Made by a program: the position numbers and the translations under genes. 64,000 nt of DNA from a virus. Below the pieces are notes generated by a model that worked only from the letters and a program-made list of their open reading frames with translations, was not told where the DNA came from and ran no database searches. Where the stretch lies: the IMG/VR virus record IMGVR_UViG_3300022921_001386; one strand, written 5' to 3'. This document shows positions 1 through 27,159 of this stretch, one piece after another. Each line of letters opens with the position of its first letter. The stretch's first letter is position 1.

Positions 1-687
1 TAGTTCGCCATTTTTCTTTGCTTTCCAATAGTCCTTGAGCCAATCTAGTTGACTTTCTGTATAAGTATGAACTGTCTTATCTTTAAGACCTTGTTTGATA
101 TCGCCTTGATCCCCTATAACCCGCGGTGTATAATCCACTCCGTTTTTATCACACCATTGTGCCAAGTATATACATTCATTAAAGTAATCTGCATCTTCGT
201 GAAACATAATGTTTATTTTAAAATTATAGTTAGCATCTAACATAGTTTGTAGATTTTCTCTAACCTGTTTTTTCTGTACTTCTGTACCTTCGCAATGATA
301 ACTAACTGTAGTAAACTCCGTACTACGCATAACAACTTCAAGTTTACGTTTACTATAAAACCCATTGGTAGTTAGTGTTCGTTTCCAATGCGGATATGTT
401 TCTTGTAAATATTCTAAAAACTTAAAAAACTCTGGATTTACAGTAGGTTCACCGCCAGTAAAACTTGCAGCAACTCTAAATCTCTCATTGCGTTTAGAAT
501 TATAAATTTCGCTATATCTTTCTAAACTATCAGCAGTTTTTACTAGTTCATCAAAACTTGCTAGATCACTCCAGTTATTTTTTCGATGTGGTGGACAATA
601 AGTACAAGCAAATGTACATCTACGACCTAGATCCCATATAACCATAAGTTGTTTTTCGGTCTTATCGTCTATACTACATAATCCCAT
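1..687 (-). CDS. Radical SAM protein, WDLGRRC type (partial, runs off the left edge; absent from the ORF track)
   Basis: Manual translation from ATG at 687: MGLCSIDDKTEKQLMVIWDLGRRCTFACTYCPPH...SFTGGEPTVNPEF...LTTNG...VSYHCE...MFHED...PRVIGD, open to position 1. CxxxCxxC and GGEP motifs; clear paralog of 5911..7065. Confidence 0.9.
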   Translation of the reverse strand, partial: MGLCSIDDKTEKQLMVIWDLGRRCTFACTYCPPHRKNNWSDLASFDELVKTADSLERYSEIYNSKRNERFRVAASFTGGEPTVNPEFFKFLEYLQETYPHWKRTLTTNGFYSKRKLEVVMRSTEFTTVSYHCEGTEVQKKQVRENLQTMLDANYNFKINIMFHEDADYFNECIYLAQWCDKNGVDYTPRVIGDQGDIKQGLKDKTVHTYTESQLDWLKDYWKAKKNGEL

Positions 688-1564
688 CTATTTTTCCTAT
701 TTTTTTCTTTGCTTCATTTATAGCCCATGTTTTTTCTAAACACCAAAAACAATCATTGCATTCAGGTAGCTCGTCGCCAGGGCGATAATACTTGTACGAA
801 TCTTCGTATCGGTTATCGACTAGTAGATTTTTTATACCAGATTCAACTGATCTAATATGCATTATATTTCCAAAGGCTTCACAACTACGAGTAACTTCGA
901 GTAAGTCTTCTATATTATACAAAAAATAATCTGCAATAATATCGTCTTTTGTATGATATATAAATGGTTGTACATTTAAAGGATATGAACTATTATTTTG
1001 TTGTCTGTAAGATAATCTATATCCTTGTAGATCTATTTCTGACATATTTCTATCAGGCGAAACATCACCAACTGTACTTAATAATTCAGGATTTCGAGTA
1101 GTAGAACAATATAATGCATCTAAATTATTTGTATATCCAATCCACAATGCATAACTAGAGTTTTCTATTTTGTCTCCTGATTTTAATGTGTCGTTAATAG
1201 GAATAATATCTCCAATTATTCCATATTCTATTTCTGTAGGAATATAATTTTCATGTTCTATAAACTTAATAGTAGGAAACATAGATTTTAACTTTTTAAT
1301 CACTTCTAAACGCACATGTTTTTGCCAAGGTTTTATTTGCCATCCTCTTACATGACTTATTGTATGTATTTCTATCTTTAAATTATGTTTTATTATATAG
1401 TTGCATATATTATAGCATAAAATAGCACTATCGGCGCCACCGGAAATATTAATACCAATCTTTGTCCATGCATCATTAAAAGGAATCGGAACTCCATTTG
1501 CTGTTTCAAAATAATTAAACTCGTTAGATTCTTTATAAATTTGTTTTATATTGTGATTTAACAT
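674..1564 (-). CDS. QueC-like PP-loop ATP pyrophosphatase (copy 1)
   Basis: PP-loop INISGGADSA; C-terminal TRSCE...PECNDCFWC matches the QueC-type Zn-binding arrangement. Confidence 0.8.
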   Translation of the reverse strand: MLNHNIKQIYKESNEFNYFETANGVPIPFNDAWTKIGINISGGADSAILCYNICNYIIKHNLKIEIHTISHVRGWQIKPWQKHVRLEVIKKLKSMFPTIKFIEHENYIPTEIEYGIIGDIIPINDTLKSGDKIENSSYALWIGYTNNLDALYCSTTRNPELLSTVGDVSPDRNMSEIDLQGYRLSYRQQNNSSYPLNVQPFIYHTKDDIIADYFLYNIEDLLEVTRSCEAFGNIMHIRSVESGIKNLLVDNRYEDSYKYYRPGDELPECNDCFWCLEKTWAINEAKKKIGKIDGIM

Positions 1565-2902
1565 TTATTGTCTTTCTATGTTGCAGTCATTTGCAAGTTC
1601 TTTTAAATGAGGGAATGTTGTAAAAAAATCCCATGTAGGATATGTTTTTTGGTATTGCTTGTTTACATAGTTAAGTTTACTAAAGAAAAATTCTGCTTGT
1701 TCAGGTGTTAAACTATCTGGCATATCACTAGTAACGCTTGCAAAATAACCATCTTCATAGTATACATTATGATAGTCTGATGCTAACTGTTTAAATATTT
1801 CATGTGCTTTTTTTATCTTTTCTATTGCGTATTTCTTTGGCAAATATGCAGTTTGCATCCATTCTGGATCTTGTAATGCATTAAATGCTATTTCTACTCT
1901 ATGACGCTTGCCTTCTACATAGTTACTACGGATAGTATCATTTATATATTGTGCCATTTGATCTATATAGGGTAAATTTAAACCTGTAACAACTGTAAAA
2001 CTTCTAACATTATCGACTACACTGTCTGGTTTAATCCAGTTTCCAAAGTTTTTTTGTATTTGATCAAAATCAGCACCATGTCGAACCATTACCTGATCGT
2101 GAGCACCATCTTGGCTTAACATTATTTTTGTTTGCCAACCAGCTGCTTTATATTTTTTAAACATGTTATAAAAACGTTCATTAAGTTTATCTTTACTTGT
2201 ACCGTTTGTTGTTATTTCTATAATTAGTGTCTTGCCTGCTGCAATAGATTCTCTGCCGGCTTCAATAAACTCATCTGCATGATCGTACATTTCGTCATGT
2301 AGTGTAGGTTCGCCGCCTAAATATGCAATATTCATCATATGTCGGCATTCTCTAATAGACTTCTTTGCAAATTCTATAACAGCACTGGTCCATTGTTGTT
2401 TATGTTCGCCCTTATAATATCTACTATCCGCAAGATAGTTTTCATATCCTCTTCCGTCTGACCCATTGGTGTCATAATCCTTGTACCATATTTTTCTTAG
2501 TGTATTACTATTTCCTACCCAACACATGAAGCAGCCTAGATTGCAAGTTGAATTCATCCATAGTTCTATGCGGCTCGGAAGTGCTACATCTGTTGGTATT
2601 GTACGATTATTAAATAGTCCATTATAATTTGGACCATGATGCTGCCGCATACTCAAAATACCGCGCTCTTCTTTTTTCCAACATGTTGTACAATCAGCAT
2701 GTTTTATATTATCATACAAACTTTGTTTGCGCTCTATTAGTTTTGGAAACTTGGTAAAATATTCATTTCCTAACTCAATAAATGCATCTTCATCAAATTG
2801 ATATGGCCATGAATCACAACAAGCCGAAAACTCACCAACTTCAGGTTGAAACTTATAAACAGTGTAACTCATTGGACAATGAAGTTGTGTAAAATCAGTC
2901 AT
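1565..2902 (-). CDS. Radical SAM protein with N-terminal Twitch-like Fe-S domain
   Basis: N-terminal HCPM...ACC...DCTTCWKKE, then CNLGCFMC, LGGEPT and TTNGT. Confidence 0.88.
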   Translation of the reverse strand: MTDFTQLHCPMSYTVYKFQPEVGEFSACCDSWPYQFDEDAFIELGNEYFTKFPKLIERKQSLYDNIKHADCTTCWKKEERGILSMRQHHGPNYNGLFNNRTIPTDVALPSRIELWMNSTCNLGCFMCWVGNSNTLRKIWYKDYDTNGSDGRGYENYLADSRYYKGEHKQQWTSAVIEFAKKSIRECRHMMNIAYLGGEPTLHDEMYDHADEFIEAGRESIAAGKTLIIEITTNGTSKDKLNERFYNMFKKYKAAGWQTKIMLSQDGAHDQVMVRHGADFDQIQKNFGNWIKPDSVVDNVRSFTVVTGLNLPYIDQMAQYINDTIRSNYVEGKRHRVEIAFNALQDPEWMQTAYLPKKYAIEKIKKAHEIFKQLASDYHNVYYEDGYFASVTSDMPDSLTPEQAEFFFSKLNYVNKQYQKTYPTWDFFTTFPHLKELANDCNIERQ

Positions 2903-4235
2903 TGGTAATATCCTCTTCTATATACTTTTTTAATCCTGGTACTACATTACTTATAGATTCGTTTCTTATCTTGTCTAAAGTATTGGTATAGTGTACAAAC
3001 TCTTGCCAATATTCATTGTAATAACTTTTACTATTCATATAGCTGCAAATTCCGTTTTTAATACCATTTGCTGCATACAAATATTTTTTATCAAACTTTT
3101 GTTCTTCAATCCAGTTTACAAAGTTGTCAAACTTTGTAGATAAATGATGCTTGTATTCATCAGGAAGAACTTGTATATTTAAGTGAGGCGGATTGTGAGC
3201 TACGTGATATGTTATTATAGGTTTAATAGAACTATTATTAATTTTTTCAAAGTTACTATGTGTTAGTTTCCATTTCATAAAATCAATCATATGTTCAACA
3301 TTATATGCTGTTACTGTAAATGCTATCCAGGCTTTTATATTAGAGGGTAACTTGTCTATTGTATTTAAATTTTTTAATATTTTATTCCATTTTGCAGGAT
3401 ATCGTTGATATTCTAAAACTTTTTCCATGCCGTCGACACTAACTCCTAATCGTATTTCTTTAAATTTTGTCCATAAGCCAACAACCCTTGGTGGTAATGT
3501 AGTTCCGTTTGTATTATATTCAATTAATATGTTTTTAGCGTACCCATAATCTATACATTTTTGTAAGAAATCGTAATGCCTTTCAATAAGCATAGGTTCG
3601 CCGCCTGCAAAATATACATGTTCTATATTAGGAATATTTTTTTCAAGCTGTTTCCAAAACATTTCACTATTTGGCCAATCAAAATCTTTAGATATAAGTT
3701 TTCCATTTACATTATGTATTTCAATTTCGCCGCTGGTATCGTTAAACGTATGCTTGCCTGTTAGCTTAATCCAATCGTCAAACCATGCACTCGAATCTGA
3801 TGGGCCGCACATTCTGCATTTTAAGTTGCAAAAATTGCCAAATCTTAAATCATAGTATTTTATAGGAGACTTTTCGGTATCTATACTACCATCTTTATTT
3901 GTAGTTGTAAGTGCATCAATAATAGAAAAATCCCACTGCAATCTTTCGTACTGACGTCTACTAGTTAATCCGTTTTCTTCTTCTTGGCGGCATCTGTCAC
4001 ATTCTTCGTTCCACTTACTACTTAACATATTTTTACGTATATCTTTCATTAGCTGACCGTTGCGTGCCTCGCTCAAATCATCTATGCCAACATTATATGC
4101 GGCGCCTGTTTCTTTTCTTACAACACCTTTATTTTTAGTTACATTAGCTTGACAACAAACACGTACATCGCCATTACTACGTGCTGCCTGAAATATCCAC
4201 GGAATAGGACAAAAAGTTTTTTCACCTTTAATCAT
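2895..4235 (-). CDS. Radical SAM protein with N-terminal Twitch-like domain
   Basis: FCPIPW...VCC...ECDRCRQEE; DLRFGNFCNLKCRMC; FAGGEP; YNTNGT; SVDG. Start moved to ATG 4235 (TAATG overlap with the upstream stop). Confidence 0.9.
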   Translation of the reverse strand: MIKGEKTFCPIPWIFQAARSNGDVRVCCQANVTKNKGVVRKETGAAYNVGIDDLSEARNGQLMKDIRKNMLSSKWNEECDRCRQEEENGLTSRRQYERLQWDFSIIDALTTTNKDGSIDTEKSPIKYYDLRFGNFCNLKCRMCGPSDSSAWFDDWIKLTGKHTFNDTSGEIEIHNVNGKLISKDFDWPNSEMFWKQLEKNIPNIEHVYFAGGEPMLIERHYDFLQKCIDYGYAKNILIEYNTNGTTLPPRVVGLWTKFKEIRLGVSVDGMEKVLEYQRYPAKWNKILKNLNTIDKLPSNIKAWIAFTVTAYNVEHMIDFMKWKLTHSNFEKINNSSIKPIITYHVAHNPPHLNIQVLPDEYKHHLSTKFDNFVNWIEEQKFDKKYLYAANGIKNGICSYMNSKSYYNEYWQEFVHYTNTLDKIRNESISNVVPGLKKYIEEDITND

Positions 4236-5380
4236 TAAAAATGCTCCGGTGTTATTAAATGTTCTAACTTGTTCCAAAGCTCACTATTTTTATCCATCCA
4301 ATGTTCTTTTCTAATCTTGTTTAACTGAGCGTCATTTCTTAAAAACAATCCAAAGTTGCCGGGCTGCTTGATCTCATGTATAAGCTGTGCAAATATTTTA
4401 CGGTATAGCACAGTATAGTTTTTTTCAATACTTTGTAAATATTCTAAAATCCAAGGTTTTATATCTTCGTGCAAGTTACGTGGTTGCATCCATTCCGGAC
4501 CGTCAATGACCACACACTCGTGGTACAACTCTTGCTCAATACAAAAATCTAATATCTCGTGAATCTTGTTTACATTATATATACTAAATGCACTATGCAC
4601 ATTTATATGTTGGAAATGTTGTTTGTACCATATGAGATTGTTGTAAACTGTGTCCCATTTACTATCTTTGCGAAGAAACTCATTAAGCTCTCCATAACTA
4701 TCAATACTCAAATCAATATGCACTTTTTTACATTGCTGTAATAGTTTGACTAGTTGTTCATTTGGTAATATACTTACGTTTGTTACTAATAATATACTCA
4801 GCTGACTAAGATTGCATTTGTTAAGTACTTTGATCAACTTATCTTGTTCCATCATTGGCTCACCGCCTAATACTTTTATAAACCTTAAGTCTGATAGATC
4901 ATAATGATTGATAATGGTGTTGTCTGTGATAATGCCTTTTGGTATTTTCCAGCCAAGTTTTTTAGCATCACTATACCAATGTGTACTAAGTTCAGGCATG
5001 CACATTCTACATTTATTATTACACACATTACTTAGAGCCAAATCAATGTTTGTAAGTTTTTTTATTTTTCCTTTACCTTCGGCTTTGGTAGGTAATCCAA
5101 AATCTCCGATGAATCCAGAGTTTATATCAGTACGCATACTTCTAGCACTACTTTTTTCATCATCATAACACTTTTTACACCCGTGAACATACTCATCATT
5201 GGACATTTTTTGTCTAATATAGTTCATATATTCGTGATTAAACGGATCCGGGTGCGCAACATTTAAATCTTCAGGAACTTCTTCTTCTCTAAATACACAA
5301 CATGGCCATATTTGACCATCAGGACGCATTGCCATGTGATGAAATGGCAGCGCACATGCATATTTTGGCATACTAGGCAT
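4235..5380 (-). CDS. Radical SAM protein with N-terminal Twitch-like domain
   Basis: ACALPF...PCC...GCKKCYDDE; CNNKCRMC; LGGEP; SIDS. Start is probably ATG 5380 or 5371. Confidence 0.9.
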   Translation of the reverse strand: MPSMPKYACALPFHHMAMRPDGQIWPCCVFREEEVPEDLNVAHPDPFNHEYMNYIRQKMSNDEYVHGCKKCYDDEKSSARSMRTDINSGFIGDFGLPTKAEGKGKIKKLTNIDLALSNVCNNKCRMCMPELSTHWYSDAKKLGWKIPKGIITDNTIINHYDLSDLRFIKVLGGEPMMEQDKLIKVLNKCNLSQLSILLVTNVSILPNEQLVKLLQQCKKVHIDLSIDSYGELNEFLRKDSKWDTVYNNLIWYKQHFQHINVHSAFSIYNVNKIHEILDFCIEQELYHECVVIDGPEWMQPRNLHEDIKPWILEYLQSIEKNYTVLYRKIFAQLIHEIKQPGNFGLFLRNDAQLNKIRKEHWMDKNSELWNKLEHLITPEHF

Positions 5381-5927
5381 ACCAGTTCTCCGATTGCATC
5401 GGATCAATGCTTAATTCGTTGATGTTTAAATGCTTAGGCTGATCAACTATCCATTTTATATACTCAGCAGCTAGATTAATATCCATAGTTTTTCTGTCTG
5501 GATGCTTTGCTTGATTGTTATCAAGTGTTCCGAGACTGATGTAACTTATTTTAGGGCCGCTTGCCCATATGCCAGTAAGCCCTAACGTATTGCTATAATC
5601 ACGCAATGCTTTCTTTTCAGCATTGTATAACCATGCTCCGCCTTTTTTAACTCTATCAGTAGTACTGCCTATGTTGATAATATGACATTGGTGATTTTCA
5701 AGTATACATTTTTTATAAACAATATCAAGTAAACTGGTTTGATTGAATCTAAACAGCGCACTACAGTTGATAAACACATCATGATGTATCACTGCTTCGG
5801 CACATCTTTCCATATCAACTTTTTTACCAAAGTCGTAACCGGTACTTCTACTAATAAACTCTGCATCGGGATAAATCTTTGCTAATGCTCCAGCTACACC
5901 TGTGTCTTTGTTACCCGTTATGATCAT
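5373..5927 (-). CDS. Compact short-chain dehydrogenase/reductase (SDR)
   Basis: ITGNKDTGVAG nucleotide-binding loop, FINCSA, INIGS and catalytic YNAEK (YxxxK). Confidence 0.85.
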   Translation of the reverse strand: MIITGNKDTGVAGALAKIYPDAEFISRSTGYDFGKKVDMERCAEAVIHHDVFINCSALFRFNQTSLLDIVYKKCILENHQCHIINIGSTTDRVKKGGAWLYNAEKKALRDYSNTLGLTGIWASGPKISYISLGTLDNNQAKHPDRKTMDINLAAEYIKWIVDQPKHLNINELSIDPMQSENWYA

Positions 5928-7065
5928 CTAATACTCCTATGTCTATGTGATTATTTAATACGTTTAATAGTTTGTCTGTTTGCATACTCTTAGGAGCACA
6001 TAATCCACATCCACATGTTTGCTTTGGACAAACAATAGTAGGCATTGTTCCAGTTTGCATTTGTTTTCTCAAATCATCTACTAGTTTTTTACCTTCACTT
6101 ATTTTTCCTATTGCGCCGCGTGTGCCATTAAACTTTGCTTGACATGTTTGATGATGAAATACTTGGTCAGTTTGTTGTTCTAAATGCAAGAAGAACCAGT
6201 TAACACTGCATTTCCACCCTTTGAACTCTCTAAAATCTACAAATGTACTTTTACGTTTTTCTGTGCCGCTGTGTAACATCATGTCTCTACTACCACAACA
6301 AGGACGTCCTATACTACTTCCTAGTTTTTTTGCATTTTTTACAACATCACCTACTGCACTACTAGCATATAGTGCATCATTTTTTTGCCTCCAATAGTTT
6401 TTCATCCACGCTAGTTGTTCTTCATTGTACTGATGAGCAAAGCTAGGTTTGCTATCTGGCTCTTCGCCAATAACTCGCGGAACAAAATCAACACCATGCT
6501 GTTGTAAAAACTCGCATAGCTCTTTGCACTCATCAAAATATTCTGCGTGAAACATAACATTTACACTAACTGTACACTCGTACATATCACCTTGATAATG
6601 CAACTGTAATATTCTATCTTTTACTTGCTGTTTGAGTTTGCCATCGCTTTCACTGTGATAGCTGATAGTAGCATGACAGAAGTTTTCCATTATTGCTTGG
6701 CCCATTTTTTCACTAAATGCGCCATTGCTTGTAAGAGCAAAATCAGCTATCCACTTGTCTTGATATTTTGCTTCGTATTCTTCTTTTAGATATTTTGCAA
6801 AAGGAATAAAATGTGGATTAACTGTGGGCTCGCCGCCTGTAAATCCTACATTTGCTTCTTTGAAGTTGCGATGCTCCATGTATACATCAATGTATTCAAA
6901 CAGAAAATCTACGTTGGCTTTTAGTTCATCTAACGTAGCATGTTTACTAAAGTTGTCGTGCCTGTGGATTGGGCAATAACTACAATCATAGTTGCACCGT
7001 CTTCCAAGATCCCATGTTACTTGAAACAACTTTCCAGTTAACAAATCAATAGTATCAAAACTCAT
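5911..7065 (-). CDS. Radical SAM protein, WDLGRRC type, with C-terminal Cys cluster
   Basis: WDLGRRCNYDCSYC; FTGGEPT; LTSNG; C-terminal PCC...WKC...TC...CPKQTCGCGLC. Confidence 0.9.
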   Translation of the reverse strand: MSFDTIDLLTGKLFQVTWDLGRRCNYDCSYCPIHRHDNFSKHATLDELKANVDFLFEYIDVYMEHRNFKEANVGFTGGEPTVNPHFIPFAKYLKEEYEAKYQDKWIADFALTSNGAFSEKMGQAIMENFCHATISYHSESDGKLKQQVKDRILQLHYQGDMYECTVSVNVMFHAEYFDECKELCEFLQQHGVDFVPRVIGEEPDSKPSFAHQYNEEQLAWMKNYWRQKNDALYASSAVGDVVKNAKKLGSSIGRPCCGSRDMMLHSGTEKRKSTFVDFREFKGWKCSVNWFFLHLEQQTDQVFHHQTCQAKFNGTRGAIGKISEGKKLVDDLRKQMQTGTMPTIVCPKQTCGCGLCAPKSMQTDKLLNVLNNHIDIGVLDDHNG

Positions 7066-7879
7066 TTATTTCCTCAATGACAGATTTTACTTGTTTGTCT
7101 GCCCAATCTCTTTCTTCACACCACCAACACTGTTTGCATTCTGGTATATACATTCCTGCATTGTAATCTCTAAAATGCCCGCAAGACTCTTTTATATTTT
7201 CCATATGATTTATATCGCCTTCACAACTACGTGTTGTGTTGTACAAATCTAATATATTATGTATGTGGTATTGTGCTACAATCCAATCTTTTTTTACAAA
7301 TCTAAAAGGATGGACAAATGTTGATTTTACTTTTCCGCTGTAAAACCATAAATCAGTTAGTTGTCCATCTTCGGCATCTTTGTCTCTATTGGTCATACGG
7401 TCTTCACGCAAGTCATCTGGATTCTTACTTGTAGCATTATATACTGCATCCAAGTTGTATTCCCATGCTGCAAACTTGTTGTAACTTCCTACTATAATCT
7501 GATCGCCACTCTTGCCGTTGATACTTGCTCCTATTACACCGTGTTCTATTTCAGGCGGAATATATGTTGTGTATCTATTTTCAATAATATAAGGAAACAT
7601 GTCTTTTAGTTTGTCAAATACTTGTAAACTAATATAGCCTTGCCAAGGTCTTGTTTCCCAACAACGTTGGTATGTAATAACATCTACTTTTGTAGTTAGA
7701 TTGTTGCGTTGTATGATTGTACACAATAAATATGTTAGCAATGCACTATCGGCACCACCAGAAAGATTAATGCCAATACGCTGCCATTTTTCATCAAACG
7801 GAATAGTTAACTTACTAAAAGTTGTAAGCAGTATATCATTAGAAATATTTTTATATAACGAGTTGTTTGTATCAAACAT
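7055..7879 (-). CDS. QueC-like PP-loop ATP pyrophosphatase (copy 2)
   Basis: INLSGGADSA; TRSCEG...PECKQCWWCEER. Start at ATG 7879 or TTG 7888. Confidence 0.8.
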   Translation of the reverse strand: MFDTNNSLYKNISNDILLTTFSKLTIPFDEKWQRIGINLSGGADSALLTYLLCTIIQRNNLTTKVDVITYQRCWETRPWQGYISLQVFDKLKDMFPYIIENRYTTYIPPEIEHGVIGASINGKSGDQIIVGSYNKFAAWEYNLDAVYNATSKNPDDLREDRMTNRDKDAEDGQLTDLWFYSGKVKSTFVHPFRFVKKDWIVAQYHIHNILDLYNTTRSCEGDINHMENIKESCGHFRDYNAGMYIPECKQCWWCEERDWADKQVKSVIEEINEF

Positions 7880-17644: not shown

Positions 17645-17650
17645 ACAGTA

Positions 17651-17679: not shown

Positions 17680-17692
17680 GAACAGAATGTGA

Positions 17693-17698
17693 TAAATA
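17693..17698 (+). promoter_or_regulatory. Putative T4-type late promoter core (TAAATA)
   Basis: gaTAAATAct upstream of GAGG and ATG 17722; the same motif precedes many structural genes. Confidence 0.6.
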
Positions 17699-17721
17699 CT
17701 AGAGAAGAGGAACCAACAAAC

Positions 17722-19176: not shown

Positions 19177-20235
19177 GTGCGGATTTTTATTAACGGCGAA
19201 CAAATATCTCAACAATGGATCAGCGACTATACGTTAAGTAACACTGTAGATTGCTACAGTGACAAGCCAGACTGGGAACAAAATGTATTAAAACTGTTGC
19301 ACAACTGGCATTCACAAAGTGGGTATAGCTATGGACATAGAGGTGATAAGTTTGTTAATCTCAGTACCAGTGGCACCACTGGATTTCCACAACAAATTGG
19401 ACACACTAAAGAAACTATAGAACAAGTTGTAAATGCAAATATCAAAACATTAGGGTTAGATAAAAATAGTAAAATATTAAGTTACTATTCACCTCGTGGT
19501 ATTGCGTTTAGTGTGCTAAGTGTGTATCTTGCATTGAAACTAGATTGCGAACTATACATTGAAACATTCAAAGGCATTGACTATATAAATCGTGTACACG
19601 AAATACGTCCAACACACACATTGTTATTGCCTAATGTTTGGAAAACATTATACACACACGACAAATGGAAAACACTAGATTATAGTAGTTTACAAACTGT
19701 TATTACAGGTAGTGACTTTACACCAATAGGAATGTTAGACGAACTACGTGAACACAATCCAGGTAAAGTATACAATGTATATGGCAGTACTGAAGTGCCT
19801 CCTATAGTATTGTACAGTGAAGAAGAAAACACATACACAATAGACAGTATTGTTCCTGGAGCAGAAGTAGATATTGTAAATGGACAGATTGCTTGTAAAT
19901 GGAGCAGTCAGCCCGATATATGGATTAGTGGAGATTGTGTAGACGGCGATAGAAATTGTTTTACATTACACGGGCGTAAGCACAACATGTTCAAACAAAA
20001 TACTGTTAGAGTATATCCTGAACAAATCGAAAAAGCAGCAGTTGCAGCAGGAGCAGAACTTGCACTGTGTCAACAAGTAAGCAATCAATGTGTGCTACAC
20101 TATACAGGTAATATAAAAGATATGAAGTTATTCAACGACACTTACAAATATATTCCAAGATTTAGACTACGGGCAGTAGATCATATTGCAGTAGACAACA
20201 ATCTTAAAAAGATTATAAGGACACAAACATTTTGA
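19177..20235 (+). CDS. Short adenylate-forming (AMP-binding, acyl-CoA synthetase-like) enzyme
   Basis: STSGTTGFPQ (A3 P-loop), NVYGSTE (A5), SGD, GRK...FK...RVYPEQIE (A8), terminal LKKI (A10-like). Confidence 0.85.
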   Translation: MRIFINGEQISQQWISDYTLSNTVDCYSDKPDWEQNVLKLLHNWHSQSGYSYGHRGDKFVNLSTSGTTGFPQQIGHTKETIEQVVNANIKTLGLDKNSKILSYYSPRGIAFSVLSVYLALKLDCELYIETFKGIDYINRVHEIRPTHTLLLPNVWKTLYTHDKWKTLDYSSLQTVITGSDFTPIGMLDELREHNPGKVYNVYGSTEVPPIVLYSEEENTYTIDSIVPGAEVDIVNGQIACKWSSQPDIWISGDCVDGDRNCFTLHGRKHNMFKQNTVRVYPEQIEKAAVAAGAELALCQQVSNQCVLHYTGNIKDMKLFNDTYKYIPRFRLRAVDHIAVDNNLKKIIRTQTF

Positions 20236-21728
20236 GAATAATAGTTTTAGGTGCCGGAACAGCTGGTGCGATTGCTGCAGGTATCATAAAAAAACGCAGA
20301 CCTGATATTGAAGTTTTACAAATTCACAGTGAACAAGTTGGTATTATCGGAGTCGGCGAAAGTGTTACTCCTTATTTAAATCATGCATTCCACGAACTTG
20401 GTATGGTTGAAAAAGATTGGATGACTGCAACTGGTAGTATGTACAAACTAGGAAACAAGTTTGAAGGATGGACAGACGAAGATCATTACTTTGCATTTAC
20501 ATACAACAAGCCTATTGATAAACTTATTAATAATAAACCTATAGACTGGAATGATATCAAAAGTATAAACGAAACTGATATTAGACTTACTGACGTATGG
20601 TGTGATTTGTACAATCAAGGAATGGTAAACAACTTTAGTGCAAGTTTTAATGATTTGCACAATTCATTAGTCGACAATACATTTGATTTTAAGTTACTTG
20701 ATCGCACTTGTCTCAACTACAGTTATCATATTAATGCAGAAAAACTTGCACCTTACATAAGAAAAAATATTAATAATAAACTTGGTGTAATAGAAATAGA
20801 AGGTAAAGTTGTCAAAGTTAATACCAACGACAACGGTGTACACAGTGTTGAGATGGAAAACGGAGAAGTATATACGTCCGATTACTGGTTTGATTGCAGT
20901 GGATTTAATAGATTACTAATCAACGAACTTGACGATAGCTTTCATACATACGACTATTGTAAAGCAAATAGTGCAGTAGTAATGCCAATAGAATATACTT
21001 CGCAAGACCAACTAACAAATCATACTAGAACTATTTGGTTAGAACAAGGATGGCAGTTTAAAATAGGATTAACCGAACGTATCGGAACTGGTATTATTTA
21101 CAGTGATGAATATTTTAGCGATGAAGAAATAAAACAACTATTGTTAGAAAAAGAAAATCATAAAAACATCCGGCCACCAAAAATACTAAAATGGACGCCT
21201 GGTAGAATGGTCAATCCTGCTATAGATAATGTGTTTAGTATAGGAATGGCAGCAGGATTCTGCGAGCCAATGGAAGCAAATGCGTTATACATTACAATGG
21301 CAACTATTAAAAGAGCATTACACAGTATTAACCAAGACGAAAATAGAAATACATTTAACAAAGTTATCAATCATACACTAGACGATACTGCATTTTTTAT
21401 TGCCGCACATTATACACTTTGTGAAAAAGGTAATAACGCATACTGGAATGATATGCGTGAAATAGGTATAAAACAAAATCACAAGCAACTATTACTGGAA
21501 AAGTACAACGATGTAAAAAATAATATGGAAAGTGCTGTAAATCATTATACAATGTATCCAGATTACATGTGGATGGAACTAGCATCGGCATGGTGTAAAG
21601 ACATTAGTACTTGGAGTAAAAATACAGATCCTAGACTACAGCAGCAAGTTTTAGAATATTTTAGAAAATCAAAAAGTATCACAACCAATCAATATCCAGA
21701 AGAAATGAGGAAGTTTCATAATGTATAG
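20232..21728 (+). CDS. Flavin-dependent halogenase (tryptophan halogenase/PrnA family)
   Basis: GAGTAG; IGVGES; MYKLGNKFEGW (catalytic Lys position); FDCSGF; GWQFKIGL; FCEPMEA. Confidence 0.88.
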   Translation: MRIIVLGAGTAGAIAAGIIKKRRPDIEVLQIHSEQVGIIGVGESVTPYLNHAFHELGMVEKDWMTATGSMYKLGNKFEGWTDEDHYFAFTYNKPIDKLINNKPIDWNDIKSINETDIRLTDVWCDLYNQGMVNNFSASFNDLHNSLVDNTFDFKLLDRTCLNYSYHINAEKLAPYIRKNINNKLGVIEIEGKVVKVNTNDNGVHSVEMENGEVYTSDYWFDCSGFNRLLINELDDSFHTYDYCKANSAVVMPIEYTSQDQLTNHTRTIWLEQGWQFKIGLTERIGTGIIYSDEYFSDEEIKQLLLEKENHKNIRPPKILKWTPGRMVNPAIDNVFSIGMAAGFCEPMEANALYITMATIKRALHSINQDENRNTFNKVINHTLDDTAFFIAAHYTLCEKGNNAYWNDMREIGIKQNHKQLLLEKYNDVKNNMESAVNHYTMYPDYMWMELASAWCKDISTWSKNTDPRLQQQVLEYFRKSKSITTNQYPEEMRKFHNV

Positions 21729-22308
21729 ATTTGAAATATACAACGGCACACAAGATTTAACACAATGGTATAAGGATGCCGAAGAAAAAGGTTACTATAA
21801 TAATAGCAACAAAGAGATGCTTGTTGACTGGGTTGAAAAACATGAAGACGCAACACTGTTTTTGTTGTACTACAATGAACATATTGTAGGCAATAGTGTT
21901 GTTCATAGTTTAAAAGAGCTGGGAATACTTGGTAAAAATGCATATCGCATTGGCGCAAGAACTTGTTTGATTAGAGACAGAATTGACGGTGGCAGAGTTT
22001 ATGCTCCAGCTAATGGCCCAGTAAATCATCATACTGTGCAAATGTTACTTCCTATATGTATCGAACATGTAGGAAGAGACAAGCCTGTGTATATTAGTAC
22101 ACACGAAGGCGGAGTGGGAAGTCAAGACCGTGTACACAAAGTGTGGACATATTTTACAAACAAACTAGGCATCACCGGTGACAGCATTGATTTAGAATAC
22201 AAAGGTGCATTCCAAACTTTTAGACGGATTGATGTTGATAGGATGTATGATTTACTAAAAGAAGCAAGATGGCCCGAGGCAGAGCAAGCTATTCCACTGT
22301 TTAGTTAA
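21721..22308 (+). CDS. Hypothetical protein, possible GNAT-fold acyltransferase
   Basis: LFLLYYNEHIVG...AYRIGARTCL resembles the GNAT beta2-beta4 pattern; weak motif evidence only. Confidence 0.45.
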   Translation: MYRFEIYNGTQDLTQWYKDAEEKGYYNNSNKEMLVDWVEKHEDATLFLLYYNEHIVGNSVVHSLKELGILGKNAYRIGARTCLIRDRIDGGRVYAPANGPVNHHTVQMLLPICIEHVGRDKPVYISTHEGGVGSQDRVHKVWTYFTNKLGITGDSIDLEYKGAFQTFRRIDVDRMYDLLKEARWPEAEQAIPLFS

Positions 22309-23678
22309 ACGTATTTCTTACAAAGTTCAAAAAAGTCTGACATCTCTGGAAAAACTTGTTCATGATCTACATTACGTCTACGACCTTGCTCTTCAAAGAA
22401 GTTGTGAAAATCTCTACGTCCTTGAATAACTTTATCTAATGGATATTCAGTAGACTCCATGTAATCAACAACACGTCTAAACTTTTCATACTCAATAGTA
22501 CTAAACGCATCTTTGCGATTATCATCTGTATTCTCTTTGATAAACTGCAAATGATCATGCATATAACTCATGTAGTTTTTAGGCAGGATATTAATATCGT
22601 ACTGCAACGGTTCTTTCAAATGCGGTGTGTCAAATCCTAATCGTTGCCATCTGTGCGTTTCTACATCATTATATTTTTTGCGCCATTCAAGAATCTTTTC
22701 AAGCAATGTACGGAATGTAGTGACACTGAAGATGTTAAATGTAATCATAATAACCATCGGTGCTTCGCAGTTGCGCATAAAATAATCCAAGTTGCGTTCA
22801 AACACTTCAATGTCTAATCCATCACGAATATACTCAGCACGTTTTCCCCAAGTATCAATACTTGTAAACATTTTAAAACGTCTAATCTTGTTGTTTGTCA
22901 ACAAGTCATTCACACGGTTTGTAAACTTTTCTAACTGTTTTGGTTTGCCGCCTAAGTTGCTGTTGCAGTTTAGTTCTAAATCTGGTTTAGGGTCTGCATC
23001 CAGCATATCAAATAGTTTATATGTGCTCTGCTGTATTGTAGGCTCGCCGCCTGTAATGCGTAAAATATGTAAGTCTTTACTTAACTCTGGCCACCACTTC
23101 CAAAATGCATCTAAATACGGATTGTTTTGTTCTTCAAATATTTCAAACCAGTCAATATCACATCTGTGATTCTTTACGTTTGTGTAAGGACCATGTTGCT
23201 TTATCTCTTGGTGATATCTACTGCTGGCTTTTGGATGACAATATCCACATCTAAAGTTACACTCATTACCGAAGCTGACCTCTAAGTATTCAGGATTAAC
23301 ATCAAACTCTGCGCCACCTTCTTTAACAGCCTTTAAGCGTTCTTTAAAGAAGATAGTTTGGTTGCGTTGTTTTCTATCGCTAACATAATCTTTGCCCATT
23401 GCTTCAATCTTCCAGCAATAGTTACATCCGCTAGGTTGCTCGCCTTTCATCATAGCAGCACGTTCTGCTTTTTTCTGTACTGTATTATGAATAGCACTCG
23501 GATTAGTTAGAAGTGGCGCTGCATCAATCTTGTGCGGTGCAGGATGATAACAACTGTGTGTTTCGCCTGTTTGAAAATATATATTAGCATGGTACCATTT
23601 AGCAAAACAAAACGTAGGAGAAATCTCTTGCGTTATTTTGTCAATACGTTTGATTTCTTCGCTTTCACTGCGTTCCAT
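22305..23678 (-). CDS. Radical SAM protein with N-terminal Twitch-like domain
   Basis: FCFAKW...HSCYHP...GCNYCWKIE; EVSFGNECNFRCGYC; ITGGEP; NSNLG; SIDT. Confidence 0.9.
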   Translation of the reverse strand: MERSESEEIKRIDKITQEISPTFCFAKWYHANIYFQTGETHSCYHPAPHKIDAAPLLTNPSAIHNTVQKKAERAAMMKGEQPSGCNYCWKIEAMGKDYVSDRKQRNQTIFFKERLKAVKEGGAEFDVNPEYLEVSFGNECNFRCGYCHPKASSRYHQEIKQHGPYTNVKNHRCDIDWFEIFEEQNNPYLDAFWKWWPELSKDLHILRITGGEPTIQQSTYKLFDMLDADPKPDLELNCNSNLGGKPKQLEKFTNRVNDLLTNNKIRRFKMFTSIDTWGKRAEYIRDGLDIEVFERNLDYFMRNCEAPMVIMITFNIFSVTTFRTLLEKILEWRKKYNDVETHRWQRLGFDTPHLKEPLQYDINILPKNYMSYMHDHLQFIKENTDDNRKDAFSTIEYEKFRRVVDYMESTEYPLDKVIQGRRDFHNFFEEQGRRRNVDHEQVFPEMSDFFELCKKYV

Positions 23679-24607
23679 TATTGTTCTCTATCTAAAAATT
23701 GTTTGCTGTTATCTCTTATTGGATTTTGGTACACTGTTTTGAAGAACTTACTTCCGCCTGCATCAAAGGGAGTCATTGCGATTGGAATATCAAGAGCGTT
23801 GATTAATTTGTCACCGTAATCTTCAGTTGCTTCTAACAAGTTTTCTTCGTCAACAGTAACTTCTAAATTTTTCCACATATTGTTTAGGTATTCAAAGTCG
23901 CGCACATTGATAAAATCCCAGTCTGTGAGCATTGTCATATACAACCCTTGACGAGCGCCATAGATACCCCACATGCCATTTTCTACATCAGCGCCAACCA
24001 TAAGCCAGATATACAAACGATGCAAGTTTTTCCAATGATTTTTATGGAAGTCTTCTACACTAACACGCATACCTTGGTCCAGTGCCATTTTAACACCTTC
24101 TCTAAATCCAGCACGCCATGCTTGATGCGGTGTAGCATTATTCATGATAGTACTATATGTACCATTCATCTGAATATATTGTGTATCCCAACAAAAATCT
24201 ACTTGTGCATGTGGGTTATTATCAGGCGCATTTTCGTGTGTACGCATGTTCAATACATGCTGTTTAGGCCAGCACTTGATCCCACCGTTACCGTATGTAA
24301 GATTATTAATAGTATTACGGGCTGTCCAACTAATCACTTTGTTTGTTAAGTCTGTGTTTTCATCAAAGTCCATTGCCTGTGTTAAAAACTTTTCATCGAT
24401 GATGTTGTCGCCGTCAATGGTGATAAATCGATCTGTAGTTGATTTATTAGCTGCTGCCTTATGGGCACTATCACTGCCTTTTACACCATGTACACGTTCT
24501 GCCCACGGAACTTTCTTGCATAAATCTGCATAGTTTTGTTCTGCATTTGGCTCATCGTAGCTTAGATATATAATGTCACAATCTATAACTCTAAAAGTAT
24601 TAGCCAT
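23678..24607 (-). CDS. Glycosyltransferase-like protein (GT-A fold)
   Basis: DIIYLSYDEPNA...VHGVKG...AH.AAA...ITIDGDN (DxD)...YGNGGIKCWP...AWRAGFRE. Confidence 0.7.
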   Translation of the reverse strand: MANTFRVIDCDIIYLSYDEPNAEQNYADLCKKVPWAERVHGVKGSDSAHKAAANKSTTDRFITIDGDNIIDEKFLTQAMDFDENTDLTNKVISWTARNTINNLTYGNGGIKCWPKQHVLNMRTHENAPDNNPHAQVDFCWDTQYIQMNGTYSTIMNNATPHQAWRAGFREGVKMALDQGMRVSVEDFHKNHWKNLHRLYIWLMVGADVENGMWGIYGARQGLYMTMLTDWDFINVRDFEYLNNMWKNLEVTVDEENLLEATEDYGDKLINALDIPIAMTPFDAGGSKFFKTVYQNPIRDNSKQFLDREQ

Positions 24608-25142
24608 TTATTTCCTCATAATGATATGTATCGAACCTACGCATAGTATATACGGAAACTTCCTCATTGTCAAACTCAAAATCATTTTCAAATGCAACTT
24701 CATCTGAATCAACAAATCTTATCAATCTGTATAGTACATTAGGATCATCTTTTTTGGTTATACTAAAATAATAGTTTGAAAGATTTATGTTAACGTTTTT
24801 GTCTTTGAGATCTAATAAAAAATCAGAGTCTGCAGATATTCTCCAAACATTTTTTGTATTATCTTTTGAAAGGATTATCTGCGGGTTGTCTGGAATAGTT
24901 GCAGAGATTTGATATAAAAAACTCCACATTAGTTTATCTTCATCAACCTGTGTTTGATTTTTAATATGATAAGTTTTATCAATAAAATCATATTCAACTT
25001 TATAGTCTAATAAACTCCAATGTCCTTCAATAAACTTTTTAACGTCTTCAAAATCGCATTCAATAAACTTGAATCTATCATCAGATTCTTTTGATATCTT
25101 ATAGATGTTTCCGTCATCATCAAAACATACAAATCTTTTCAT
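24600..25142 (-). CDS. Hypothetical protein
   Basis: 180-aa ORF tightly coupled to both neighbours; no motif recognised. Confidence 0.75.
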   Translation of the reverse strand: MKRFVCFDDDGNIYKISKESDDRFKFIECDFEDVKKFIEGHWSLLDYKVEYDFIDKTYHIKNQTQVDEDKLMWSFLYQISATIPDNPQIILSKDNTKNVWRISADSDFLLDLKDKNVNINLSNYYFSITKKDDPNVLYRLIRFVDSDEVAFENDFEFDNEEVSVYTMRRFDTYHYEEING

Positions 25143-25143
25143 A

Positions 25144-25986
25144 TTATATTCCCAAACACTTTTCGTATTTTTTCATTAGATTAATATTTAAGAAATCTTT
25201 TTCAGTGTAATGAAAAATACCCGACTGTTGATGATTTCCTATTTTTAGCCTCATGTCGCTATCAAAATAAACTCCAACTCTATCTTGCCAACGATATGCA
25301 AAGTTAACATCCCAGCCTTGTATCTTTGGTTTCATATGTGTAAATGTAGGATTTTTAACTTTGTTATTTGTAATCAAATGTTCTATATCCATTGTTTTAC
25401 AAGCAATTGCTGCACTAACATCCATACTTGGTCGCAATGCAAACTTTTTGCCGGTGCCTGCTGATTTATAAAACTGTTCCCAGTTATTTGTTATCATTTC
25501 AAGCCAAGTATAAAATTCGTGTGCTAAATCTGATTTCTTAAACCAATGGAACCCGCTGTACAAGTTTGGAAGATTGTGTGTTTTAAATGCCTTGCGGTAA
25601 TAGTTATCATCTACTAGTTCTCCGCGATATGTATAAACATTACTAGTATAAAACAGATCGTAGTTTCTTAAAAAATCAAACCAACTGCTAATATCTTCAA
25701 GTATTAACATATCTGTGTCTATTACCACAGTTTCATTATAAGGAATAGCATGATATATTTTCCAACGATTACTGATTTTCCAATCTTCGTCTTTGGCGTG
25801 ATCTCCCCACGGTATTTCTACAATATGATCAAACAAATGTTTGTATTTTGTAGGCACACTTTCATTGGTAATAAGACAAATACTAACATCTTTGTTTGTA
25901 GCATGAATACTCATTGCTGCTAAACATGCTTGTCTAACATAATCAAAATCACTATTTTGTGCCAACATTGTAAAGTTATTGGTCAA
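25144..25986 (-). CDS. Glycosyltransferase, GT8/mannosyltransferase-like
   Basis: DYVRQA...SI...ICLIT...NRWKIYHAIPYNETVVIDTDML (DxD)...YSG...FTHMK. Confidence 0.75.
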   Translation of the reverse strand: MTNNFTMLAQNSDFDYVRQACLAAMSIHATNKDVSICLITNESVPTKYKHLFDHIVEIPWGDHAKDEDWKISNRWKIYHAIPYNETVVIDTDMLILEDISSWFDFLRNYDLFYTSNVYTYRGELVDDNYYRKAFKTHNLPNLYSGFHWFKKSDLAHEFYTWLEMITNNWEQFYKSAGTGKKFALRPSMDVSAAIACKTMDIEHLITNNKVKNPTFTHMKPKIQGWDVNFAYRWQDRVGVYFDSDMRLKIGNHQQSGIFHYTEKDFLNINLMKKYEKCLGI

Positions 25987-26815
25987 TAATTCTCTCCAAA
26001 CTAAACTTGTTCATCACATGACAGTTACTGCCTTTGAGATTTACACCAGTATATTCTCCAAGTCTTCTATTTTTTTGTACTAATATTTTTATTTCATCGT
26101 CTTTGATATCAACAGCTACATCTTTATCTGTTGCATAAAACTTGGTACCTGGCAAACTTCCAACAAAGTTTCCTTTTTGATATCCATTCATAATATGTAC
26201 TGCAATACTAAAAGCAAAATCGTTTCTATACACACTTGTTTTAAACTGATACATATTACGATAATGTATATAGTTTTCTTCAATATGTTTGATTAAGTTA
26301 AAGAATATTTTATTTTCTTCTGTTTTTCTAAAAAAGAAAACAGTAGCCCAATAAAAATCAATACTAGTATCACTTACTTTTTCAAACTCGGGTACTATTG
26401 TATGCATACCAATATGTGTAGCATCTTTGTATAGCAAAAGATCTTTTTGCTGTACAAAGCAATTATTTAATAAATCATTGCTAATAATATAATCAGTATC
26501 CATTACAATAGTAGAATCATAAGGAGTTAAATCATATGCTGATGCTCTATTTTTATTATTAAACTTTAATGTTTTATCACTAAAGTCACCATCGGCATAT
26601 CGCTTGTTAGTACTATTTCTGTTCATATCATTGGAATGAATGACATAATCAAATACATCAACATCATTTGGATACATAGATTGAATATCTGTATCTGTAA
26701 CAATCGAAGTGGGTAAATCCATATACTTGCTTATACGTTTAGCAAGGAAAATAGCTTGCTTTACATAATCAATCGATTTATTATTACTTGCAAATAACAG
26801 TACACCTTTTGTCAT
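25976..26815 (-). CDS. Glycosyltransferase, GT8/mannosyltransferase-like (tandem paralog)
   Basis: DYVKQA...AYDLTPYDSTIVMDTDYI (DxD)...WAT...RNDFAFSIA...HVMNK. Confidence 0.75.
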   Translation of the reverse strand: MTKGVLLFASNNKSIDYVKQAIFLAKRISKYMDLPTSIVTDTDIQSMYPNDVDVFDYVIHSNDMNRNSTNKRYADGDFSDKTLKFNNKNRASAYDLTPYDSTIVMDTDYIISNDLLNNCFVQQKDLLLYKDATHIGMHTIVPEFEKVSDTSIDFYWATVFFFRKTEENKIFFNLIKHIEENYIHYRNMYQFKTSVYRNDFAFSIAVHIMNGYQKGNFVGSLPGTKFYATDKDVAVDIKDDEIKILVQKNRRLGEYTGVNLKGSNCHVMNKFSLERIIDQ

Positions 26816-27159
26816 AGATCCATAATACTTTCAACTGTTCTATTTGTTTTTAGCTTGTTGTATTCTGTTAAGTATTTGTTTGTTGATTGCCAATACACAT
26901 TTACAAGTTCATTAGCAAAATCTTGTAATGCTTCTATTTCAATGGGTATACTACTATCATCAACTAAAATTGTTTCAGTCTGATGTAGTGCTAATAAACT
27001 TTGACAAAAACTTATAAGATCTTTAGTTACCGAAAACTGGCCGCCATTAAAATAATAAACAAGATTCTCGTGGTACTGTTCTTTTAGCAATCTTTTTTGA
27101 TTATTTAATGTAATCATATAGTTGCTAAAATCTAATGCTTTTTCTAAGCGTTCGTCCAT
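26812..27159 (-). CDS. Hypothetical protein (possible tail-fibre assembly/DUF4376-like)
   Basis: 115 aa with AGGAG RBS, next to fibre genes; the family resemblance is weak. Confidence 0.55.
   Translation of the reverse strand: MDERLEKALDFSNYMITLNNQKRLLKEQYHENLVYYFNGGQFSVTKDLISFCQSLLALHQTETILVDDSSIPIEIEALQDFANELVNVYWQSTNKYLTEYNKLKTNRTVESIMDL

Follow-up and report, generated by a model that had tools for sequence, protein, structure and literature searches.

A large, variable island of radical SAM, QueC-type, and glycosyltransferase-like genes beside the tail fiber genes of an uncultured phage

Results

A dense enzyme island bracketed by fiber-type genes

We analyzed a 64,000-nucleotide stretch of viral DNA (IMG/VR record IMGVR_UViG_3300022921_001386), hereafter called the window, whose positions 1 to 27159 hold an island of 27 densely packed genes with open reading frames (ORFs) throughout. 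Its products include radical S-adenosylmethionine (SAM) enzymes, QueC-type PP-loop enzymes, and glycosyltransferase (GT)-like proteins (Table 1). A preliminary description of this DNA had depicted a tightly coupled enzyme block adjoining tail fiber genes and continuing beyond the left edge. Indeed, 23 of the 24 same-strand junctions overlap or abut, and the fiber genes begin at 29306. The sequence to the left of the window was read from the phage's own 170,965-bp ENA metagenome contig, on which the island extends for approximately 16 kb more. This extension includes three more radical SAM genes, a cytochrome P450, a second halogenase, a second adenylating enzyme, a 691-amino-acid radical SAM protein, an Asp/Asn hydroxylase (Asp_Arg_Hydrox), a methyltransferase (MTase), a fourth QueC-type gene, and two small DUF6356 genes. 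The DUF6356 genes (69 and 86 amino acids; L007:16002-16468) lie at the far left end of the island, directly before fiber genes on the opposite strand.

That left flank (L007:16493-21188) encodes a 1000-amino-acid protein with a weak Peptidase_S8 match and a fiber-type protein with Mtd_N and PTL_trimer domains. Mtd is the target of the diversity-generating retroelement of Bordetella phage BPP-1. With the Mtd_N/PTL_trimer gene at the left and three fiber genes at the right, fiber-type genes therefore bracket the island.

Three families of radical SAM enzymes

As the preliminary description had counted, 11 ORFs between positions 1 and 27159 encode radical SAM proteins, and the CxxxCxxC motif is intact in every one. 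An all-against-all comparison combined with NCBIfam searches divides them into three families, which we call N-twitch (seven genes), rSAM-B (two), and rSAM-C (two). Six of the seven N-twitch proteins score 193 to 421 bits against NCBIfam NF033640 (N_Twi_rSAM), above its curated cut-off of 170 bits, and the seventh scores 154 bits. In the family alignment, conserved cysteines at positions 9, 27/28, 90, and 93 precede the CxxxCxxC motif at position 146, so that the N-twitch copies combine a Cys-rich, twitch-like N-terminal segment with an intact radical SAM motif. The likeness to NF033640 thus lies in both the score and the N-terminal cysteines, although NF033640 itself exists as a catalogue entry to which no reaction has been assigned, whereas here seven copies occur together with two further radical SAM families.

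The rSAM-C proteins lack a GGE motif and carry a C-terminal CC...C...C cluster. Only the N-terminal part of the rSAM-B gene at the left edge lies in the window, and the complete gene on the phage's own contig encodes 419 amino acids. Radical SAM paralogs are typically 20 to 45% identical; the array is therefore old and not the product of recent amplification.

A divergent family of QueC-type enzymes

The three QueC-type paralogs share an SGGADS motif and a C-terminal four-Cys, zinc-type motif of the form TRSCE...C..C..C, and across 27 family sequences SGGADS and SC...C..C..C.E(R/K) are invariant or nearly so. Sequence comparisons place them at a distance from QueC itself. Searches of Pfam and NCBIfam gave no QueC match at E 0.01, only PP-loop fragments; a family profile searched against the PDB gave only PP-loop motif matches, at E 0.05 or weaker; and hhalign against true QueC reached a probability of 25%, confined to the C-terminal region and its motif. 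The structural model of paralog 2, however, is nearest to QueC (3bl5, Z 14.2, root-mean-square deviation (rmsd) 3.5 over 185 amino acids; 2pg3, Z 14.0), followed by Cap9 (Z 13.1) and QatC (Z 12.4), with QueC approximately 1.3 Z above TilS-type enzymes. Judging from this model, a fair label is QueC-type PP-loop enzyme of a divergent family. The three QueC-like genes that had been proposed thus stand as real paralogs with a QueC-nearest fold, but they fall under every QueC sequence threshold. The fourth copy, outside the window, is likewise a member of the divergent family rather than a canonical QueC, which brings the genome to at least four QueC-like paralogs. The idea that one of these copies serves as the QueC of the genome finds no support.

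QueC, Cap9 (from type IV CBASS), and QatC (from QatABCD), the best structural matches, have the PP-loop and a C-terminal Cys motif in common with the island proteins. The latter are 45 to 70 residues longer, fall below the sequence thresholds, and occur in linkage with radical SAM and GT genes, not with deazaguanine or defense genes. These likenesses raise the alternative that the QueC-type and radical SAM enzymes make 7-deazapurine or other nucleotide derivatives, or base-protein conjugates in the manner of Cap9 and QatC. Such chemistry would agree with the order of fold matches, with the presence of PF06508 in distant relatives of bacterial QueC-type members, and with the number of QueC-like paralogs in the genome. 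We nevertheless consider it improbable. Five other large contigs with QueC-like genes (100-217 kb, incomplete) lack TGT and DpdA, the Bdellovibrionota described below retain a canonical QueC besides their QueC-like copies, the profile aligns with true QueC over the C-terminal motif only, and the family goes with the radical SAM and GT core, not with deazaguanine genes.

Two pairs of glycosyltransferase-like proteins

The four GT-like proteins that had been noticed in the sequence resolve into two of GT-A type and two of GT8 type. The model of the GT-A protein encoded at 23678-24607 matches B4GALNT1 with Z 10.4 (rmsd 3.0 over 140 amino acids) and gives Z 9-10 to a Leptospira GT, STIV A197, ThuS/SunS, and SpsA. 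Two aspartates within an (I/V)DGD motif are invariant in the family alignment. The Pfam GT2 threshold is missed (19.9 bits versus 27), and a PDB profile search with the GT-A family found no match. The second GT-A protein (16001-17674) has an unusual N-terminal portion, where 330 residues repeat part of the protein's own catalytic domain three times, in degenerate form and without the Asp motif.

A profile built from eight members of the GT8-like family aligns with positions 15-104 of glycogenin-1 at E 8.1e-5, with the DTD motif opposite DAD. Single GT8-like sequences gave no match in Pfam, and the GT8 assignment is therefore moderately supported.

The top Foldseek match of the 23678-24607 model is the chlorovirus PBCV-1 capsid glycosyltransferase A64R (E 7.8e-4). 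The likeness is to a virus-encoded, soluble GT-A enzyme that acts in the cytoplasm. The match is weak (TM score 0.2-0.4), and the chlorovirus system has no radical SAM enzymes. Both glycogenin and A64R are protein-directed glycosyltransferases.

Halogenase, adenylating enzyme, and other island proteins

The halogenase gene that had been proposed is well supported at the level of the family, with 240.8 bits against PF04820 (cut-off 21) and matches to tryptophan halogenases in the PDB down to E 5.6e-47, the viral VirX1 among them. Its GxGxxG motif is present (GAGTAG), its WxWxIP motif is degenerate (GWQFKIGL), and by eye Lys and Glu residues occur in the expected contexts. The adenylating enzyme likewise holds up, although it is short: PF00501 scores 68.9 bits (cut-off 29.9) over profile positions 170-359 only, and the TSGTTG, YGSTE, and GD motifs are recognizable. 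Two other suggestions fared less well. The short-chain dehydrogenase/reductase (SDR)-like protein has the expected motifs and weak model matches, so that support for this assignment is weak, and the MTase-like protein (14974-16017) shows Rossmann-type motifs by eye but has no Pfam or PDB profile match.

Searches of Pfam and PHROGs at E values up to 2 returned nothing significant for the proteins encoded at 14974-16017, 21721-22308, 24600-25142, 26812-27159, and 27213-29286 or for the conserved 74-amino-acid protein, and a protein atlas search found only unnamed viral clusters. A relative of the Ser/Thr/Gly-rich proteins at 27213-29286 precedes the GT block in other phages (cluster 46 synteny), and all relatives of these proteins are viral hypothetical proteins. 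None of 32 proteins examined contains a hydrophobic segment. Without membrane segments there is no flippase, polymerase, or exporter, so assembly must be cytoplasmic.

The 74-amino-acid ORF was considered as a carrier protein or as the precursor of a peptide that is made by the ribosome and modified after translation (RiPP), and both were rejected given its lack of a Ser attachment motif and of cysteines and its conservation over the full length. Because it is uniformly conserved, with no variable core, it does not look like a precursor peptide; to judge from its sequence, it is probably an accessory subunit.

These observations bear on a reading in which no sugar is involved and the enzymes cross-link, epimerize, hydroxylate, or halogenate the side chains of a protein or peptide, either a fiber-type protein or a small RiPP-like precursor. 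Secondary matches of the radical SAM proteins to PapB, HxsC, CcpM, and anSME, together with their SPASM/twitch ancestry, point in this direction, as do the enzyme of the tryptophan-halogenase family, the P450, and Asp_Arg_Hydrox. A fiber-like gene also shares one operon with the adenylating enzyme and the halogenase, and the two DUF6356 genes at the far end are small. The maturase matches are weak, however (E 1e-5 to 1e-11, far below cut-offs), and RRE and PqqD matches, a leader peptidase, and an exporter are all absent. The one small conserved ORF shows uniform conservation, and no precursor gene with a variable core was found, although small ORFs were not exhaustively searched and the two DUF6356 genes were not examined. 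Sugar genes moreover recur in variant cassettes and in bacterial contexts. Peptide modification of this kind is thus rather unlikely.

Fiber-like genes and putative promoters

The fiber-like gene embedded in the island had been described as such, and a shared terminal motif bears this out. The C-terminal motif of its product (17689-19137) is common to a second fiber-like family, and a related motif occurs in the N-termini of the tail fiber proteins. Its translation probably begins at 17722, preceded by a late-type ATAAATAC motif (17692-17699). ATAAATAC and close variants lie 5 to 30 bases upstream of structural-gene start codons, at 35411, 53010, and 54328 on the minus strand and at 17692 on the plus strand, and from this placement ATAAATAC may be the late promoter of this phage. 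The T4 late promoter TATAAATA was also considered; it is depleted, with two sites where 11 are expected, and its use in that form was therefore rejected.

The island head carries a sigma-70-type promoter of consensus form. Sites of the form TTGACA-N16-18-TAWAMT number four in the window versus 0.55 expected: this one (27183-27211, minus strand), 24645-24673 and 39453-39481 on the same strand, and 59416-59444 on the plus strand. The last precedes the late-sigma gene, and the site at 39453 falls inside the giant gene described next. From these motifs we infer early or middle transcription of the enzymes and late transcription of the fiber-like gene. Early expression would suit enzymes that must act before assembly, but the rival readings accommodate it just as well.

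Between the baseplate genes and the fibers lies a 4545-amino-acid ORF (35415-49052, minus strand) that matches the virion structural family phrog_10938.

The source phage and the cassette in other phages

The right half of the window encodes the structural module of a myovirus, with replication-type genes next to it. The baseplate wedge protein shares approximately 35% identity with its counterparts in jumbo phages of 340-490 kb, such as Atu_ph07, Phosso, SCTP-2, and members of the Rak2-like group, and a search with it matched no cyanophage. The left 25 kb of the window has no DNA in common with any cultured phage. Close relatives were found on contigs of up to 353 kb, and CheckV rates a 186-kb contig with the same cassette as 52% complete and the 88.6-kb relative G001 as 24% complete, from which we place the genome at approximately 360 kb. 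We read the source as an abundant, uncultured marine jumbo phage. A 149-amino-acid ORF (63398-63847, plus strand) downstream of the gp46/47-like genes matches PHROGs annotated "NAD synthetase" and homing endonuclease.

To obtain family counts, ORFs were clustered from the best 80 of more than 435 IMG/VR contigs found by a pattern search for the QueC-type family. A core recurs: QueC-type enzymes are present in 76 of the 80 loci, rSAM-C in 75, N-twitch in 74, rSAM-B in 71, and the MTase-like protein in 69. The GT-A family occurs in 37, the 21721-22308 family in 36, the SDR-like protein in 33, and the 74-amino-acid protein in 24. The recurrent order is GT-A, MTase-like, 74-amino-acid protein, rSAM-C, rSAM-C, N-twitch, QueC-type, N-twitch, and rSAM-B, and the distal part varies. 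Examining synteny across relatives had been proposed as a check on the link to fibers, and its outcome is mixed. A fiber-like gene with the shared terminal motif, in two architectures, adjoins the cassette in approximately 23 of the 80 loci, whereas other phage lineages have different flanking genes, which we weigh below.

Gene content differs even between close relatives. G001 is approximately 94 to 98% identical to the window over positions 4229-33271 but carries different genes in place of 1-4228, where its region ~20000-26080 (L002) holds other N-twitch paralogs at 40 to 44% identity and extra families. From the alignment, this is strain-level cassette exchange inside the island, and surface-antigen loci show comparable variability in gene content. 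Other phages have variant cassettes that additionally encode UDP-glucose dehydrogenase, an aminotransferase, and a NodU-type (sugar-type) carbamoyltransferase. No cultured phage has the whole cassette. The QueC-like and rSAM-B families gave no match among cultured phages, and N-twitch and rSAM-C gave only weak matches, to RsoM2USA, Vibrio K566/K567, and Pelagibacter phage Mosig. Ralstonia phage RsoM2USA is a partial exception, with one N-twitch gene two genes from a NodU-type carbamoyltransferase.

The core in predatory bacteria

When prokaryotes were scanned with a single genome for each species, orthologs of the N-twitch protein at 10064-11461, at 58 to 64% identity, appeared overwhelmingly in Bdellovibrionota, complete chromosomes included. 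Around this ortholog lie genes for MTase-like (36-47% identity), GT-A (~41%), rSAM-C (~48%), and rSAM-B (64-69%) proteins, often with further N-twitch, QueC-type, and SDR-like copies. In total, 31 of 151 sampled Bdellovibrionota genomes were positive versus none of 14 controls, and individual genomes (1.9-3.1 Mb) carry 9 to 16 N-twitch copies. One 1.9-Mb chromosome (G004:C1) has 16 N-twitch genes, mostly in two tandem arrays (792852-803016 and 1068646-1092743). In one Bdellovibrionota chromosome, seven tandem N-twitch genes and an rSAM-B gene precede genes for AsnB, GT2, a UDP-sugar dehydrogenase, and a GT-C protein (PMT_2, ArnT/PMT type). An exact-sequence look-up of a Bdellovibrionota gene contributed further radical SAM neighbors only. 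Bdellovibrionota hold a canonical QueC besides the QueC-like copies; a QueC-like pattern search of prokaryote genomes yielded no confirmed relative, and relatives were found only beside radical SAM matches. Matches of 84 to 92% identity in metagenome-assembled genomes of other phyla are probably misbinned phage contigs. In our literature search, no publication connected the core with Bdellovibrionota.

A Limisphaerales genome has a pair of N-twitch genes that border a macrolide-type GT1 and a polyketide synthase. This neighborhood is among the arguments for a diffusible glycosidic natural product, aminoglycoside-like or other, that would act on the host or on competitors during infection. The solubility of all proteins would also suit such a product, as would an enzyme mix like that of aminoglycoside and nucleoside-antibiotic clusters (twitch-type radical SAM enzymes and an SDR, with a carbamoyltransferase and an aminotransferase in variants). 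The island, however, contains no scaffold-forming gene, exporter, or resistance gene, and its recurrent linkage is to fiber-type genes, which leaves this proposal very doubtful.

Table 1. Features of the window and the evidence on which each assignment is based
Feature	Position	Strand	Evidence
rSAM-B radical SAM	1..687	-	PF04055 E 2.8e-11; CxxxCxxC at residue 24; 39% identical to 5911-7065
QueC-type PP-loop enzyme, paralog 1	674..1564	-	SGGADS and C-terminal Cys motif; 37% identical to 7055-7888
N-twitch radical SAM, divergent	1565..2902	-	NF033640 154 bits, under cut-off; CxxxCxxC at residue 120
N-twitch radical SAM	2895..4277	-	NF033640 379 bits; no DNA-level counterpart in 95%-identical relative G001
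N-twitch radical SAM	4235..5407	-	NF033640 238 bits
Short SDR-like protein, 184 amino acids	5373..5927	-	adh_short E 3.8e-3; YdfG model E 4.7e-6; TGxxxGxG-like and YxxxK motifs
rSAM-B radical SAM, C-terminal Cys-rich tail	5911..7065	-	PF04055 E 1.7e-9; 15 Cys
QueC-type PP-loop enzyme, paralog 2 (modeled copy)	7055..7888	-	Model pLDDT 93.5
N-twitch radical SAM	7872..9206	-	NF033640 193 bits
QueC-type PP-loop enzyme, paralog 3	9199..10074	-	PP-loop matches only; relatives in >435 viral contigs
N-twitch radical SAM, core ortholog	10064..11461	-	NF033640 421 bits; 2185 metagenome relatives
rSAM-C radical SAM	11458..12582	-	TIGR04311 E 3.5e-10; CxxxCxxC at residue 33; 32% identical to 13691-14770
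N-twitch radical SAM	12519..13694	-	NF033640 242 bits; SPASM E 7.9e-8 at N-terminus
rSAM-C radical SAM	13691..14770	-	PF04055 E 5.5e-7
Conserved 74-amino-acid helical protein	14763..14987	-	ORF; family in 24 loci
MTase-like core protein, N-terminal repeats	14974..16017	-	Rossmann-type motifs by eye
GT-A domain (C-terminal)	16001..17674	-	Glyco_tranf_2_3 E 8e-4; VDGD motif; 31% identical to 23678-24607
Fiber-like Gly/Thr/Asp-rich protein	17689..19137	+	phrog_1325 and phrog_25721 matches
Compact adenylate-forming (ANL) enzyme, 352 amino acids	19177..20235	+	PF00501 E 4.6e-19
Flavin-dependent halogenase, tryptophan-halogenase family	20232..21728	+	PF04820 E 3.5e-71
195-amino-acid protein	21721..22308	+	FeeM/GNAT-type hint E 0.08, not significant
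N-twitch radical SAM	22305..23678	-	NF033640 299 bits
GT-A fold GT, modeled copy	23678..24607	-	Model pLDDT 88.5
180-amino-acid protein of conserved GT block	24600..25142	-	Family (cluster 48) is syntenic, placed before the GT-A genes of other loci
Two GT8-like (glycogenin-like) paralogs, 25144-25986 and 25976-26815	25144..26815	-	27% identical to each other
115-amino-acid protein, first gene of minus-strand operon	26812..27159	-	ORF
Consensus sigma-70-type promoter TTGACA-N17-TATACT, island head	27183..27211	-	Only intergenic gap at minus-strand operon head
Two paralogous Ser/Thr/Gly-rich proteins, 27213-28322 and 28369-29286	27213..29286	-	27% identical to each other
Three tail-fiber-type genes, right flank	29306..34786	-	PHROG tail fiber and tail protein matches; shared N-termini
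gp6-like baseplate wedge	49052-52516		Further wedge and hub proteins alongside
gp55-like late sigma factor	59464-60294
gp46/47-like nuclease subunits	60349-63137

Discussion

We tentatively favor a reading in which the island is a soluble, variable, and probably early-expressed cassette that makes and edits an unusual sugar-based structure in the cytoplasm of the infected cell, with a fiber-type protein as the most likely acceptor. In this scheme, the GT-A and GT8-type transferases would put sugars onto the acceptor, and the radical SAM paralogs would carry out C-H chemistry on those sugars (oxidation, epimerization, deoxygenation, or formation of C-C or C-methyl bonds). The QueC-type enzymes would adenylate a carboxylate and convert it to an amide or related group; the carboxylate of a uronic acid would be a natural substrate for such an adenylating amidase. 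The SDR-like, MTase-like, halogenase, P450, and adenylating enzymes would add further tailoring, and decoration of a fiber-type phage protein in or beside the island would make the adsorption apparatus strain-specific. We infer the sugar substrates, the order of the steps, and the acceptor from gene content and context. Cytoplasmic sugar tailoring is favored because there are four GT-like proteins, because sugar genes occur in variant cassettes and among bacterial neighbors, because membrane proteins are absent, because gene content varies as in surface-antigen loci, and because linkage to fiber-type genes recurs. A fiber-type acceptor, for which the case is weak, is favored because fibers bracket the island and a fiber-like gene adjoins the cassette in a portion of the other loci. 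That phages and predatory bacteria have the core in common further suggests a target located on a prey-contacting apparatus.

Several observations weigh against this reading. No core family has a known substrate, neither the three radical SAM families nor the QueC-like family, so the argument for sugar chemistry is contextual, and among named models the closest are, for the most part, maturases of peptides or cofactors, matched at weak E values. The window has no sugar-nucleotide synthesis gene, and GT-like genes are just 4 of the 27. Halogenases, P450s, and Asp/Asn hydroxylases are more typical of aromatic or peptide substrates. In other phage lineages, thyX, HNH, and ATPase genes rather than fibers flank the cassette, and adjacency to fibers may therefore only reflect a plastic region of the genome. 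Finally, the enzymes apparently use an early-type promoter and the fibers a late-type motif, which is neutral to mildly adverse for a role confined to the virion. Of the multi-step sugar pathway decorating the virion that had been proposed, the coordinated multi-enzyme island is upheld and sugar chemistry is the best-supported part; the assignment to the virion is weakened by the early-type promoter and the non-fiber flanks elsewhere.

The layout of the island has precedents. In pelagimyophages and cyanomyophages, a host recognition cluster (HRC) forms a hypervariable island in the structural module beside a giant virion protein and tail fibers, and it holds GT8-type GTs and radical SAM cassettes that are gained and lost between close relatives (Zaragoza-Solas et al. 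2020, PMC7029224). The present island is alike in having fibers on both sides, content swapped relative to a ~95%-identical relative, and GT8-like and radical SAM genes. The HRC lies between vrlC and gp14; here no gp14 was located, and the 4545-amino-acid virion protein precedes the fibers, in the position that VrlC occupies in marine T4-like phages, a likeness of position alone. The two differ in that the baseplate of the present phage is nearest to those of Rak2/Atu_ph07/SCTP-2-type jumbo phages, not T4-like cyanophages, and in that the HRC paper (PMC7029224) neither defines a conserved core nor describes a presence in Bdellovibrionota; the halogenases, P450, and adenylating enzymes are extras here.

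For GT8-rich islands in fiber regions, alteration of the host surface has been proposed (PMC7029224). Applied to the present island, the enzymes would alter nucleotide-sugar pools or glycans, and the host machinery would display a changed O-chain or capsule that blocks superinfection. The predicted early transcription is consistent with this alternative, and bacterial homologs have as neighbors ArnC/ArnT-like and UDP-sugar dehydrogenase genes, whose products act on envelope glycans. A check of 32 proteins, however, turned up no membrane protein, flippase, polymerase, or GtrA/B-type gene, a set of over 20 tailoring enzymes far exceeds any known seroconversion module, and the benefit during a lytic cycle is unclear. 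We therefore regard conversion of the host surface as unlikely, though credible enough to be kept in view.

Arrays of radical SAM genes have also been described, as modules in Campylobacter phages CP220 and CPt10 (Timms et al. 2010, PMC2853527) and as 12 genes in a T4-like marine genome (Nishimura et al. 2017, PMC5332604). These phages likewise carry 11 to 12 radical SAM genes per genome, partly as an interchangeable module, of unknown function. Comparison of the three radical SAM families of the window with Campylobacter phages found no match (N-twitch at E 1e-8, rSAM-B and rSAM-C at E 1e-5), and homology between the modules is therefore not shown. The preliminary description had stated that no characterized pathway of this composition is known. 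With respect to chemistry this stands, but the layout is not without precedent given the islands and arrays of PMC7029224, PMC2853527, and PMC5332604, none of which proposes a tested function or defines a conserved core. The contribution of the window is an especially large version, in which a P450 and adenylating enzymes accompany two halogenases. Structure models back the QueC-type and GT-A assignments, and a profile match backs GT8 for the second GT pair.

Returning to sugar tailoring of fibers, a bolder form of this idea can be stated, although we think it unlikely to hold as a whole. The core would be a system, so far undescribed, by which the adhesion fibers of attackers from outside, namely uncultured phages and predatory Bdellovibrionota, receive a glycan that bears amides and has been edited by radical SAM enzymes. 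Paralog arrays would generate strain-specific chemical diversity, and at least three of the radical SAM reaction types would be new to carbohydrate chemistry. The core cassette is small enough to express, and partial versions can be cultured in RsoM2USA and possibly in cultured Bdellovibrio relatives. Should the reading hold, abundant ocean phages spend approximately 10% of a ~360-kb genome on unassayed chemistry, with radical editing of sugars as its new enzymology. The presence of the core in predatory bacteria would then point to a shared dressing of prey-contact machinery, and the decorated fibers may represent a layer of host range that is missed by sequence-based predictions of receptor binding.

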